From a plasmid: DNA of 64,000 nt. Of this stretch, positions 3,001 through 18,000 are shown piece by piece. Position numbers: made by a program. How positions within the stretch are numbered: position 1 is the first letter of the stretch; every line of letters starts with the position of its first letter. Location: the NCBI RefSeq assembly GCF_056746865.1, contig NZ_JBWKMP010000005.1. One strand, 5' to 3'.

Positions 3001-6000
3001 GATACTTCACTTTCTGTCTGAATACTGATGTACCACTTACCGCAGGACTGACTGACAGTGACATTTTTCACAACGCCCGTGACCTGACGGCTGTTCCGGT
3101 AGCGCATCCAGCCAAGTTTTGGCAGAAAAATTCGGCTGCTTTCCTGATCGAGCTTAACGCCCTGCGGGTAGCGGAATGCATCATTCTGTCCCCGCTTTTT
3201 GAATCGGGGAAAAGCCGCCCGCTTCTGGAAGAAATTTTTGTAGGCCCGCTCAAGGTCTTTCAGTGACTGCTGCAATGGCTGTGATGGGGCATCTTTAAGC
3301 CATTGGGTTTCAGTGGCATTTTTCCACTCAACCAACCACGAGGCCATCCTTGGGTAAGGAATATATTTGTTCCCTGCCTCATGGTTCTCATTCTGAAGCG
3401 CCAGAGCACGATTGAAAACGAAACGACATGCGCCTGCGAAGCGCCTCATTTCTCGCTCCTGTTGACCACCGGGTCTTAACTGGAATTTAAATGCCTGTAG
3501 TCGTTTCATTCGACCATTTTAAACAAAAAAAGCCAGGTGGAAAAACTCGCCTTATATCCTCGCCCTGAAGGACGGGGTTTTACGGCGCACTGGATAATGC
3601 TGTTGGCGCTTGAGGCTTTCTGCCTCATGGCGAAAAGGTGGTTTGTATCTTGTTGTGCGGCAGAAAGAAGAAAGCCCCGTAGTTAATTTTTCATTAACCC
3701 ACGAGGCGATCCCAATGCTTGAACAACATCAGGATAGCCTCTTACCGCGCGTTACGCAAGGAGAAGAAGGCCATGAAACAGCCGAAAAACGCCCTGACCT
3801 GGTGTTTATTAATCGTGTGCTGCACATTGTTAATATTCACGTATCTGACCCGGAATCGTTTGTGCGAGGTCCGGCTGAAAGACGGAGACAGGGAGGTTAC
3901 GGCAAGTCTGGCTTACGAATCCAACGGTAAGTAGCAACCCGGAGGCGGGCGAAAGCCCGCCTTTTTGGGGATGATGTGGTTCTGGCATTAAGCGCCTTTA
4001 CAAAGGGGGTATTCTGTACGGATACCCCCTTTTTCCAAGTATTTTCAGGATATTAACTGCTGAAAATGGTATAATTAGTCAATATGACAGCAATTATTGA
4101 GGCGAGTATGCAGCCAAAAAAAACACCCGTGATTGTGGTCAAAAAACGCCGCGTTCTGGTCATGCCAGAAAATCCTGTGGTGAATGAAAAGCCGCAGGAA
4201 GTACAAAAATCAGCAGTTAATGAAAACAAGAAAGTACAGAAGAAAGATGCTGTAGCAGAGAAAACACGTAAAAAGCAGCCTCAGCCCTGGTATTTGAAAA
4301 AACAAATCACTTTTCCCCCAAAATATCCGAAAGAATATTTTGAAAAGTGTTTCAATAAAGTTCGTGCTGTTTTTCCTGAACTATGGACAGACGAAAAAAA
4401 GAACTTGCCCCTGAAAAGCGGGATTCTCCAGGACGTTGAGAAATACCTGGCGGATAACCCGGATGTGGATCTGACGATTGAAGAGTGGAATTGTGCGGTT
4501 CAGGTGATGACGTTCCGGTGGCAATATCTTCAGAATTGTACTGTACCAGGCGCAACACGTTACGACCTTTACGGGAAACCTGCTGGTACAGTAAAAAAAG
4601 CACACGCAACTTATGCGCAACTGGTTCTCGATGCCCGTAAGAAAGCCAGCGAGAAGAAACAATTAAAACGTAAGGGATAAAGCCCCGAAGGGCTTTATCA
4701 TTTCAGCCTGGCTGACTGTAGAATCCAGTGATTTTTTCCGTTTTCGTCCAGGCCGTGTTCGTAAGCTGCAAGAGCCGCTTTCATTATTGCTGTTTTTGTC
4801 TGGCCTGTTCGCAGTGCTTCCCGTTCCAGAATATCTTCGTAAACGTCCCCAAGCCGGACATTGGTCACTTTAGTTGCTCCCGATTTTTTGCGGGTAGCTT
4901 CATTGATGAATCGGGCTGTGTCTGCATTGGTTTGTTCTGTTTTTTGTCCTGGTATTACCGGAGTTTTCAAGTCAAGAGCCATTATATCACCTTTCGTGTG
5001 TTACATTAGCTTTACTGTGTAAAGTTAATGATGTAAAGCTGTCGTATTACATCCATTAGGGATTGATGCCTAACTCTTGCGCCAAAAGCTCTATTTGTGC
5101 TTTAGCTGTAGAAAGGCTGGATGCGCGACGTACATCATGAACGCCAGCGCCTTCATTACAGGCCGCTTCAAAAATATCTAAATCTGAAATACGTGTACGA
5201 AGTGGCTGTATCCACACCGGGTTCTCCCGGAGTAACTTGTCGAGATCAATCGCTGCTTTTCTGTGGCGTGGTTTTGTCGTGTTAATTCTCGTGAAAAGTA
5301 CCCAGGGTTGCAGGTCTGGATTGATCTGTTGAGCTGTGCGAACTTTTTCTGTTACATGAGTCAGCGTTTCTGCTTCGAAATCTGAAGACGGCTTAACGAG
5401 AGTAAGCAGAATGTCAGCTACAGTTAAGGCACTGCGAAATTCCTTGCTGTCATGCCCTGGACAGTCAATGATCAGCACTTCACATATTTTTTTCAGGCGC
5501 TTAATGACTTCTGATACATCGCCATACTCTTCATAAACAGGAACCGGTAATAAGCCATTCTGCTTTCTTTTTTCGTTCCAGCTAAGAATATCATTGTTTT
5601 TATCGGTCTTCAGAATGATGACCGTTCGTGAATTATTTACCAGATAAGAAGCCAGGTTTGTTGCTGTGGTGCTTTTTCCTACACCGCCTTTATCTGATGC
5701 GACAAGTAATGCTCTCCCCATAGAAACCTCGGATATACAGTGTAAAGGTTTATTTGTCTTTACATTGTATTCATTATAGTTACGTTGTAAAGATGTTTGT
5801 GTCTTTACAATGTAATTGTTTTTGTGCTTTACATTGTGTGTATGTTACCCAGTGCGCCGTAAAGCCCCGTCCTTCAGGTCGGGGATATAAGGCGCGGTTT
5901 TCCACCTAACTAGGTGTTTGCTGTTGTTCAATGTATTGGCGGATGATGGATATTGGCGCACCTCCGCAGCTACTGGCAAAATAGCTGGGACTCCATAAAA

Positions 6001-15000: not shown

Positions 15001-18000
15001 TGTGTTTCTGCGGCTGATTCTCAGGCAGAAATACCCGCTATGGCGCGTGAAGCGATATTGGCAATCGTGGAAGATATGGTATTAAGCGGTGCTTATTCTG
15101 TTGATGATATTCATGATGAAGGGTGTTTGACTTATTCGGATCACTCCAATTATAAGCACTGTGATAGCTGGTTTTTGGTTGATGTCGATTTAACATTAGA
15201 CATGCCGTAGTCCGGCTATCGGGTCATGAGGACGCTGAAGAATATCGCAGGCATATATTTACAGTGTAAAGGTGTTTCTGTCTTTACATTGTAAGGCTTA
15301 TTGAATACTACACTGTAGTGCAATGTATGTGTTTTTATGACCTATCCCCGCGTTGTGCGGGGATTTTTTTTGATAGCTAACCGCTCGCCGCAGTCTAGCG
15401 ACCGAGCATAGCGAGCGAGTGACGAGGAAGCGGAAGATCCACCGTTGCCAGGAGAAAAGCAGGTACGCACTATGCATTCTGCCCTAGTGATGCTTTCACA
15501 AACCACGCGGCCTGAACTATTACGCCATGAATCCAGCGCAAATCGGCATCACGATTTTCTTTTTTCATTTTTTCGCCACTTAAAGCCTTGCTTACGTGAC
15601 TTTTTACCAGATTTTCGTGTAATTCTTTTGCTTCTTCAATTGTGAAACCACCAGGCAAATTTGGCGCTTCTGCTTCCAGTGATGCCAGAGCAATTTCATA
15701 AGCCCGGCGCTCAATATTGTCTCGCACGTCCAGGCTGCCGATTCGCTCCCTGATTTCTTTAATTAGTTTCTTGTCGTCGTCGGTAAATGTTGTCATCTCA
15801 CTCTCCTTTGGCGTCAATGTTTACAGCCTGGCAAGCCTCTTTGAGCACCCAGTCAATAGCGTCTTTCCATGCCCCTGTTTCGACGGGAGGATTCGTGTGC
15901 TTTACCTGATCGTAGAAGCGTACTGCGTTTACCAGTCCTCTTGTTGGTGCTGCTATCGCAGGTGGTAAGTTGTAGAGTTCCTGAATTTCATAGTTCGGCC
16001 TGTCGTTGCAGTCTTCTTTTGTCGGCACGTATTTCCAGTCACCAACCCACGTTTTACCCTGAGAGTCCGTAACGTCTTTTTTCACGTAACGATACCTCCA
16101 TGCAACAACCCCAGCTTCCAGCGATGCCAGTGCGATTTCATAAGCCCGGCGTTCAATATTGTCTCGCACGTCCAAGCTGCCGATTCGCTCTCTGATTTCT
16201 TTAATCAGTCCCTTGTCGTCGTCGGTAAAAGTTGTCATTAGTGACTCCTTTTCATATCTATGGTTTTCTTGAATCAATTTCGTCTAGTTTGAGTTTTATA
16301 TTTTGCTGGTCTGATTTTGGTAATTTTCTCATGCTCTCTTCAGTTATTTTTTTCATATCAAGAAAAGCTCTTGCATAGAAGCGCAGGCTTGCCTCTTTTT
16401 CATGTTGTGCAACATACCAGGTTGCGCCAGAAAATGCCGCAGACAGGCATAATGTGCACAAGGCACAAATTGCAATGGCTGTTCTTGTACTGAAGGGTTT
16501 TACAGCCTTAGATAATGACTTCAACTTTTCTTCATATAATTTGTTGTTTTTTTCCTGGTTGCGTTTAATTCCAGATATGAGTTCAATAATATCATCTGTT
16601 AATTTTTCTTTTACCTCAACACTTGTTTCTTTTAGATCGTTTTTTCCCTCTTCTACTTTTTCTTTTATTTCATTATCCAGATCGCCGCACGTCTCAACAA
16701 TATTCTTGAATCTTTGAATATAGTCATTTTCTACAGATGAAACGACCTGTCTGAAGCCCTCAGACAGGGCAGTGAAGTTAGCTTGTAACTCATTGCTGAA
16801 TTTTTCCTGTATCTTTTGGTTCAGAAAAATTAATGAAATAACTGGATCATCTTTTGATATTTTATGCCCTGTCTCCTTGAATACATCAACAATAAAATTA
16901 TCAATATCTTCACTGGAAACAGCCTTTTCAGGCTGTTTTAATTCTGGCTGATTAACTGTACTCATATTATTCACCGTGTTCATCGTCATAGATGCTATCT
17001 AATTGTTTGTAAATGTCATTGAAGACTCGTTTTAATCGTGATTTAGCCATTAATCCAAAATGGTCGGACTCAAGAGCTTCTTTCAGTGTTAGTGATTTTT
17101 CTGTTAGCTCTTTGATGTCAGAGGCAAAGGCATCACTTTTTCTGTCCTGAATAACCACAACGCCAGCGATTACATCCTTGTTTTTTTCAATGAATTTAGT
17201 TTCTATTAATGGGATATTTTCAAGTGCTGGAATACCCTGAAATTCATTTATCCAGACAATAAGTTTTACCTTACTTCCTTTAACCAGTTCTTTCAGTTCT
17301 TCAAATCCCTGCAAGGTATCCGCAAGAGCTTGTCCACCAACGATAACAGTATGGATATAAACGTCTTGTTCTACATCTTCAAACATGTCCATAACACAGT
17401 TATCATTGAAATACTGAATTAACGGTAAAAATGTAGATGCGCCATTGTCAATAACAAAAGTATTCTGACTATTGGTCAGCATTGATTCGAACATTGGATC
17501 GAATTTGGATTGTATTACTTTGCTGTTTTCAGTGATTTGTATCAAATCTGCATTTAATCTTTTTACTTTAACCGTAGTTGTATTAACCGGGTCTGTGTCA
17601 CCGACTACGATATTATCCATGTGATTTTCATCAATAAAGTATTGTGCCAGTATTGCGGTCGCGAATGATTTTCCAACACCACCTTTACCCTGAAGGATGA
17701 AATTGATTGAGTTTTTCATTTATAATGCTCCTTTACTTAAAGATATTTATTTATGAATTTTTCATTCGTAGCACTTGGATCGTGCTCTATTTCTTTTTTG
17801 TTCTCACTAATGTTTGAAAAAAAACCTTTTACCCCCCCTCTCGGTTCATCGCCTTTAGCTTCATTCTGATCAATTACATCTATGGTTTTTGCCTGTTCTT
17901 TTGGTTCAGTGCATTTTTGTCTTTTTTTAGCCCTCTCTGTCATATTTATATAAGTCTTTTGGGCTAGTTCTGTCTTGGTGTTGTTGTTTATGTAATCAGC

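Follow-up and report, generated by a model that had tools for sequence, protein, structure and literature searches.

Palindromic TGTAAAG sites that accompany a parA–RHH cassette and are dispersed along an IncI2 plasmid

Why does one short palindrome recur both at a partition gene and beside operons unrelated to it? The question is raised by a 64,000-nucleotide stretch of plasmid DNA (contig NZ_JBWKMP010000005.1 of RefSeq assembly GCF_056746865.1), hereafter called the window, in which clusters of CTTTACA/TGTAAAG palindromes lie around a small parA gene and at a series of other loci. The window belongs to an IncI2 plasmid, its par region being 100% identical to that of IncI2 plasmids such as pEC1266-mcr (typed IncI2 / MOBP / MPF_T). 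Comparison of the motif and of the genes beside it led us to regard the palindromes, with good confidence, as the cognate cis elements of a cassette formed by parA and the gene for a 94-residue ribbon-helix-helix (RHH) protein, by which they would be bound.

The palindrome and its sites

A sequence-only reading of the window had proposed dispersed clusters of these palindromes, and every cluster that it listed was found where it had been placed. When the motif scan was run on the window and on shuffled sequence, the motif proved more frequent than shuffling would give: exact CTTTACA occurred 25 times on the two strands, as against 9.6 ± 2.9 expected, and none of 100 shuffles reached 25. Eighteen of these 25 matches lie inside the clusters, between positions 5010 and 15296, and the other seven are scattered one by one, at roughly the frequency of background. 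The composite pattern TGTAAAG-N8-16-CTTTAC was found at seven loci (13 strand hits) where 0.01 was expected, all of them between 5.0 and 15.3 kb.

The repeat unit is the 15-bp palindrome CTTTACAnTGTAAAG. Palindromes usually occur in pairs, separated by a T-rich spacer of 10 bp and thus 25 bp apart from centre to centre; in such paired sites the inner heptads are invariant and the outer heptads degenerate. On the + strand the right-hand half reads TGTCTTTACA at all eight sites, so that a single orientation is kept throughout.

We lettered these sites A to H. Site A (5003-5046) lies between the parA stop codon and the start of the RHH gene, and consists of the palindrome CTTTACTGTGTAAAG (5010-5024) followed by a TGTAAAG heptad (5032-5038). 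Site B (5733-5841), upstream of parA, has five 15-bp units, at 5733-5747, 5758-5772, 5778-5792, 5803-5817 and 5827-5841. Site C (10477-10540) has three (10477-10491, 10502-10516 and 10526-10540); it follows the operon of an XRE-type gene and precedes the leader of orf 12760, from which it is separated in the window by an insertion sequence (IS) at 10563-12310. C is a paralogue of B, and the same IS200/IS605 element stands directly to the right of both. Site D (13350-13393) has two units, at 13350-13364 and 13379-13393, whose spacer is 14 bp long in the window because of a 4-bp insertion, as against the canonical 10 bp in plasmid AR_0113. The weak and degenerate site H (14201-14229; ATTTACA and CTTTACGGTGTATTA) marks the right boundary of a hicAB module, and homology with the IncI2 variant L005 resumes within it, at window position 14220. 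Site E (14712-14751; units 14712-14726 and 14737-14751) lies at the promoter of an open reading frame (ORF) for a 147-residue membrane protein. Site F (14838-14887), with units at 14838-14852 and 14863-14877 and an extra TGTAAAT at 14881-14887, is upstream of a HicB-like ORF that begins at 14911, and in other IncI2 variants it is upstream of hicA. Finally, site G (15257-15296; units 15257-15271 and 15282-15296) comes after this truncated hicB and before a terminator at 15344-15364.

The parA–RHH cassette and its arrays

The parA gene (5056..5721, - strand) encodes a small deviant Walker-A partition ATPase of 221 residues, of type Ib, which carries the motif KGGVGKST and has neither an N-terminal helix-turn-helix (HTH) nor a DNA-specific domain. 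Its entire sequence could be aligned with ParF of TP228 (4dzz/5u1g), and the protein matched the NCBIfam model ParA_partition with E=3e-29, a score below the curated cut-off. The gene directly downstream (4698..4982, - strand) encodes the RHH protein, a candidate centromere-binding protein and repressor. Among Pfam families this protein matched RHH_1 only, and weakly (E=0.005), with no match to the omega-repressor family, and a phmmer comparison with all PDB chains, at E up to 10, gave no match. In an AlphaFold2 model based on an alignment of 19 sequences the N-terminus is disordered; a short helix then precedes the RHH helix pair (predicted local distance difference test, pLDDT, 82-94), and one more helix lies at the C-terminal end. 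Conserved in the family are a beta-strand x-[N/T/S]-[F/V/Y]-R-L and a helix motif NKTxILKAAL.

Membership in the ParG family was rejected in view of the weak RHH_1 match and the lack of a match in PDB, and further because IncX1 plasmids have a true ParG and a homologue of the 94-residue protein as separate genes. A ParB/KorB-type HTH protein was rejected as well, since the plasmid protein has 94 residues and an RHH domain only, as against the HTH, the N-terminal ParB/Srx domain and the length of about 300 residues or more of such a ParB. The protein may be called ParG-like, yet its sequence places it in none of the families of ParG, omega and ParB. Three hallmarks of type Ib are nevertheless present, namely a small Walker-A ParA, an RHH gene directly downstream and a repeat array over the predicted parA promoter. 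The locus is therefore best read as a type Ib partition system, in which the small ParA would act together with a putative RHH centromere-binding protein and a repeat serving as centromere and operator. The earlier claim of a ParG/ParB-type centromere accordingly survives in one half: the comparative analysis, together with the position of the predicted parA promoter inside the motif, speaks for the ParG-type (RHH) link, whereas an HTH ParB has no place in it.

In order to place the cassette among its relatives, nine lineages were compared: IncI2, the IncX3 plasmid pNDM-HN380, two other IncX-like plasmids (one from Serratia and Salmonella pUWI-PS6.3), pPM33-2 of Proteus, and four contigs of metagenomic or draft origin. 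A homologue of the 94-residue protein was encoded directly 3' of a small ParA in nine of nine lineages (35-56% identity outside IncI2), and TGTA[A/C]A[G/T]AC / ACAnTGT arrays lay upstream of parA in all of them. Arrays were found in the gap between parA and the RHH gene as well in eight of the nine; the gap of the ninth (L012), 46 bp long, was not read. Units equivalent in position to site A occur in IncX3, Serratia and Proteus and in the sequences L011, L013 and L014. The array variants among the relatives include TGTAAATAC, GTACATAC and ACAnTGT. In pNDM-HN380 and the Serratia plasmid the RHH homologues are about 55% identical to the IncI2 protein, and their ParA proteins are 74-75% identical to IncI2 ParA (75% for IncX3). 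Upstream of parA these two plasmids have 20 and 18 RTAAAG(AC)/CTTTAC hexamers, respectively, and in both, four further hexamers between parA and the RHH gene match the position of site A. One homologue search returned near-identical fragments only; the distant relatives were reached by an exhaustive search, which found only 29 representative relatives among 1.84 billion proteins. In all four of the distant relatives that were looked up, the RHH gene again follows a small ParA. Taken together, the arrays accompany the parA–RHH cassette across lineages, and the motif is thus an old companion of this cassette.

The arrangement of the units was then compared by a geometry scan with three patterns, TTTAC-N3-RTAAA palindromes, RTAAAG-N10-CTTTAY inverted pairs and RTAAAG-N5-RTAAAG direct repeats. 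The par region held 19 of the 20 matches in IncX3 and 17 of the 19 in pUWI-PS6.3, in arrays with a period of about 36 bp, and the scan of the IncI2 window gave 11 true matches over seven loci. The palindromes and the inverted pairs are common to IncX and IncI2. The direct repeats, at 11-bp spacing, belong to the IncX arrays, and IncI2 keeps one degenerate copy of them, at site A. Related IncX plasmids have about 20 units in one block at par; in IncI2 a similar number, about 7 at par and about 12 at C, D, E, F, G and H, is scattered over about 10 kb. On the sequence comparison, dispersal of the sites is specific to IncI2 among the plasmids examined.

These arrays also bear on the form in which the DNA would be recognized. 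The 40-bp dyads could be hairpins of the transferred strand, made for priming, as single-strand promoters or for strand-specific proteins, and not duplex binding sites at all. The site pairs do fold as single-stranded DNA (ssDNA) into stems that measure 8-16 bp, mostly 12-13, at -4.5 to -9.5 kcal/mol (z from -1.6 to -6.7), and in the outer arms of B1 and C matched changes have replaced TTAC...GTAA by ATAC...GTAT. The sites are moreover located in the presumed leading region, beside leaders, described below, whose presumed transferred strand folds strongly when single-stranded (-93.6 kcal/mol, z = -5.3 vs shuffles, for the IS-free copy in L005). However, near-identical palindrome pairs are automatically self-complementary, the matched changes are a single compensatory event, and the AT-rich stems with 10-nt loops are weak, with site F folding no better than shuffles. 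The IncX hexamers, in contrast, are largely direct repeats 11 bp apart with the 36-bp period, which is the signature of a protein array. We consider a hairpin function improbable.

Promoters, constraint and rearrangements at the dispersed sites

Only sites B and E clearly overlap predicted promoters. The parA promoter, on the - strand, is predicted inside site B, with a -35 TTTACA at 5791-5786, a 16-nt spacer and a -10 TACAAT at 5769-5764. Its hexamers are made of the motif itself, and occupancy of the site should therefore repress parA. The promoter of the membrane ORF, also on the - strand, consists of TTGACA at 14778, a 17-nt spacer and CATTAT at 14750; its -10 abuts site E, which covers the predicted transcription start. 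Site F precedes a gene, and a hicA promoter of perfect consensus, at 13483-13511, is found about 95 bp downstream of site D. An intrinsic-terminator scan flagged several of the sites, but their stems are AT-rich with three G-C pairs, and this function was considered unlikely.

Constraint was found to lie on the heptads. At site F the heptads and the adjoining TGT are identical across IncI2 variants, as against 4 of the 10 spacer positions and flanks that are not alignable, and at site E substitutions are confined to the central n, the spacer and the flanks. Six or seven of the loci are kept in every IncI2 variant examined (L001, L005 and L015).

Several observations weigh against assigning all of these sites to the RHH protein and to a function in partition or regulation. 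In the IncX1 plasmids pSYM1 and p869Rt, a classical ParF-ParG pair, equipped with ACTC boxes, is followed as third gene by one for an RHH homologue of 42-44% identity, and no TGTAAAG arrays were found in these two plasmids. The residue in the RHH beta-strand (N vs T/S) shows no clean covariation with the motif variant (GTAAAG, GTAAAT or GTACAT). Sites C, D and G are away from predicted promoters, none being obvious near G; B, C and D precede a recurrent leader, with which they could have been duplicated; and the one orientation common to all sites fits descent by duplication. The presence of the IncX1 homologue without arrays indicates that the arrays track the pair of ParA and RHH protein, not the RHH protein alone. 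This homologue (2429-2740 in pSYM1, L007, and 33980-34273 in L009) differs at its N-terminus and may be a relic or have been repurposed.

The points on promoters, leader and orientation lead to a second explanation of the dispersed copies, according to which C, D, G, H and perhaps F are relics of segmental duplication or recombination of leading-region modules, and only A and B are functional. B and its paralogue C precede the same leader of about 450 bp, a 13-bp deletion in AR_0113 has removed half of site E, and the insertion in the spacer of D is found in some variants only. Plasmid pAH59-40 arose by homologous crossover within 38 bp common to the direct-oriented sites C and G, an event that deleted orf 12760, hicAB, the membrane ORF and the hicB-like gene. 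Descent as relics accounts poorly for site F, whose heptads and spacing are exact despite divergence of spacer and flanks beyond alignment, and for site E, where substitutions avoid the heptads. No leader accompanies E, F and G, whose flanks are unique, and the retention of six or seven loci in all IncI2 variants examined also speaks against mere remnants. Several of the dispersed copies may indeed be remnants that travelled with the repeated leader modules, but as a whole we hold this explanation to be unlikely.

The leader in question is GC-rich, about 450 bp long, and stands before leading-region genes at 7597-8056, 8520-8789 and 12311-12759, with a partial copy at 13395-13452; it resembles Frpo/ssi single-strand promoter elements. 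Sigma-70-like promoters of the form TTGATA-17-TATTAT, at 7966-7994, 8699-8727 and 12669-12697, precede orfs 8057, 8790 (a J-domain protein) and 12760. Their spacer is a perfect inverted repeat, ATACATCTA-aa-TAGATGTAT, which probably serves another repressor as its operator, with the XRE protein as one candidate.

This second inverted repeat has to be considered together with the possibility that another dimeric regulator binds the palindromes, either the 80-residue XRE/MqsA-like HTH protein (10199-10441) or a host factor such as TyrR. HTH dimers typically recognise perfect palindromes such as this one of 15 bp, site C comes directly after the XRE gene, and we take the TGTAAA/TTTACA hexamers to resemble half-sites of the TyrR box. 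The repeat in the leader promoters is, however, a better candidate operator for a second regulator. The sequence-only reading had named the XRE protein beside the RHH protein for binding assays. The arrays are present in IncX3, which has no XRE homologue, and absent from an IncX1 plasmid that does encode one (48% identity); in a 25-kb stretch of pEC1266-mcr that lacks the XRE gene, six sites persist. Motif and XRE gene do not co-occur, and the XRE protein was thus rejected as the binder. The spacing of the TyrR box, TGTAAA-N6-TTTACA, gave 4 loose matches in the window vs 5.6 expected, none of them in the clusters, and TyrR was rejected too. Binding by any such regulator appears very improbable.

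Two further candidates were rejected. The sites are hardly iterons, since the IncI2 RepA is of the IncI-complex type, presumably under antisense-RNA rather than iteron control of copy number, and they lie at least 4 kb from repA. As for shufflon sfx sequences or other targets of site-specific recombination, the one junction examined was a plain homologous crossover, and we assume sfx sequences to be unrelated to the palindromes.

The surroundings of the sites can be described as follows. On the left the motif region is bordered by repA, hok-sok and a ProQ-FinO gene, and on the right by the nikA(mobC)-nikB relaxase genes at 18.5 kb. By analogy with IncI1 we take it to be the leading/maintenance region, and the genes at 8057-14139 are oriented towards the presumed oriT. 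Two identical IS200/IS605 elements of 1,748 bp (Y1 tnpA + tnpB) occupy 5849-7596 and 10563-12310. Both are inserted immediately 3' of TTAC, next to B and C, and IS-free relatives are uninterrupted at these points; pEC1266-mcr has one copy of the element and lacks the DNA between the two copies of the window. A third, diverged tnpB lies near the replication region, at around 2301-3509 on the - strand. The interval from site D to site H contains a different, inserted hicAB pair (13547-14139). The HicB-like ORF after site F (14911-15210) is shortened relative to the 146-residue HicB of other IncI2 plasmids, having lost the C-terminal RHH domain, and there is no hicA in front of it. In pAH59-40 (L010) a C/G hybrid site at 5001-5038 directly follows the XRE gene. 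The sole match of an Rfam scan was the sok antisense RNA of a hok/sok type I toxin-antitoxin locus, at 3604-3775 (RF01794, 98 bits). The NikB-like LPD7 relaxase (ORF 18845-23158) contains long tandem ATEQ(A/E)Q peptide repeats at about 21170-21500.

Partition and regulation

Among known systems, ParF-ParG-parH of TP228 is the closest in logic. Like IncI2 it has a small Walker-type ParA, to which the IncI2 protein aligns over the full length, a downstream RHH protein of 76-94 residues with a flexible N-terminal tail, and repeats upstream of parA that extend over its promoter; ParG also acts as repressor of its own operon. It differs in that the IncI2 RHH protein has no detectable sequence relation to ParG, in that the unit of IncI2 is TGTAAAG(AC) in 15-bp palindromes and not the ACTC tetramer box with AT spacers, and in that IncI2 has a second cluster between parA and the RHH gene and extra clusters elsewhere. 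Boxes of the ACTC type were seen only upstream of IncX1 parF. From par2 of pB171 (ParA, RHH ParB, parC1 + parC2) IncI2 differs in that its second cluster lies between both genes, in its repeat sequence, and in having five or six further clusters up to 10 kb away.

For the dispersed copies two other systems are instructive. The omega protein of the inc18 plasmid pSM19035 is an RHH protein that recognises 7-bp heptads, direct or inverted; it is the centromere-binding protein for a small ParA (delta) and a global repressor, and the promoter regions it controls double as parS. The IncI2 heptads at par and at other operons fit this logic, although IncI2 is a Gram-negative plasmid with an unrelated protein sequence, a different heptad (WATCACW for omega) and palindromic pairs 10 bp apart in place of contiguous heptads. 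KorB of RK2 (IncP-1) is a partition protein with palindromic operators scattered over the plasmid, by which the expression of the backbone is coordinated. As a large HTH ParB of type Ia it differs from the 94-residue RHH protein, and the operator and the class of ParA (IncC) differ too. The KorB/ParB-like global regulator suggested at first thus holds as a functional analogy only; the protein class does not, the IncI2 protein being RHH and not an HTH ParB. By analogy with omega or KorB, the extra IncI2 copies would most likely be auxiliary operators or partition sites.

Binding of the sites by the RHH protein, repression upon binding and centromere action are what these comparisons most likely point to, and the following scheme may be envisaged. 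At the heptads, with the core TGTAAAG(AC), the beta-ribbon of RHH dimers would enter one major groove after the next, and a dimer of dimers would sit on each 15-bp palindrome, the palindromes being paired 25 bp apart. Sites A and B would form the partition complex moved by the ParA ATPase, and occupancy of B would shut off the parA promoter, resulting in autoregulation. The extra sites would most likely let this repressor act on nearby promoters, enlarge the partition complex, or both. Repressor targets could be E, over the start of the membrane-ORF promoter, and F, before hicAB or the hicB-like gene. Genes under this control would be switched on when the plasmid enters a new cell, and switched off again as the RHH protein builds up. 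For this fuller account, in which the dispersed copies have a regulatory or partition role, our confidence is somewhat lower than for the cognate cis elements themselves, though we still find it probable.

A bolder extension can be put forward only tentatively, and we think it rather unlikely in its entirety. IncI2 may have split an IncX-type block centromere into a distributed centromere-operator, so that one RHH protein would both segregate the plasmid and silence leading-region modules after establishment, with zygotic induction of hicAB, the membrane protein and others. The direct-oriented 40-bp sites would at the same time be crossover points at which such modules are exchanged between plasmids or deleted, as in the C/G hybrid of pAH59-40. 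The literature searched on IncI2 and IncX partition, operators and RHH proteins contained no description of these sites or of a centromere or operator role for them, and the studies of IncI2 HicAB and IncX3 VirBR do not treat them.

IncI2 is a major vehicle of mcr-1 and IncX3 a vehicle of blaNDM, and the parA–RHH cassette thus sits in clinically important plasmids. A defined 15-bp site with a likely binder would offer a handle for incompatibility-based curing and a basis for stability studies, as well as a means of following how the leading/maintenance region is shut down once the plasmid has been transferred. Importantly, the block of sites in IncX and their scatter in IncI2 would constitute a natural experiment on how the sites of a partition protein are recruited into a plasmid-wide regulon.

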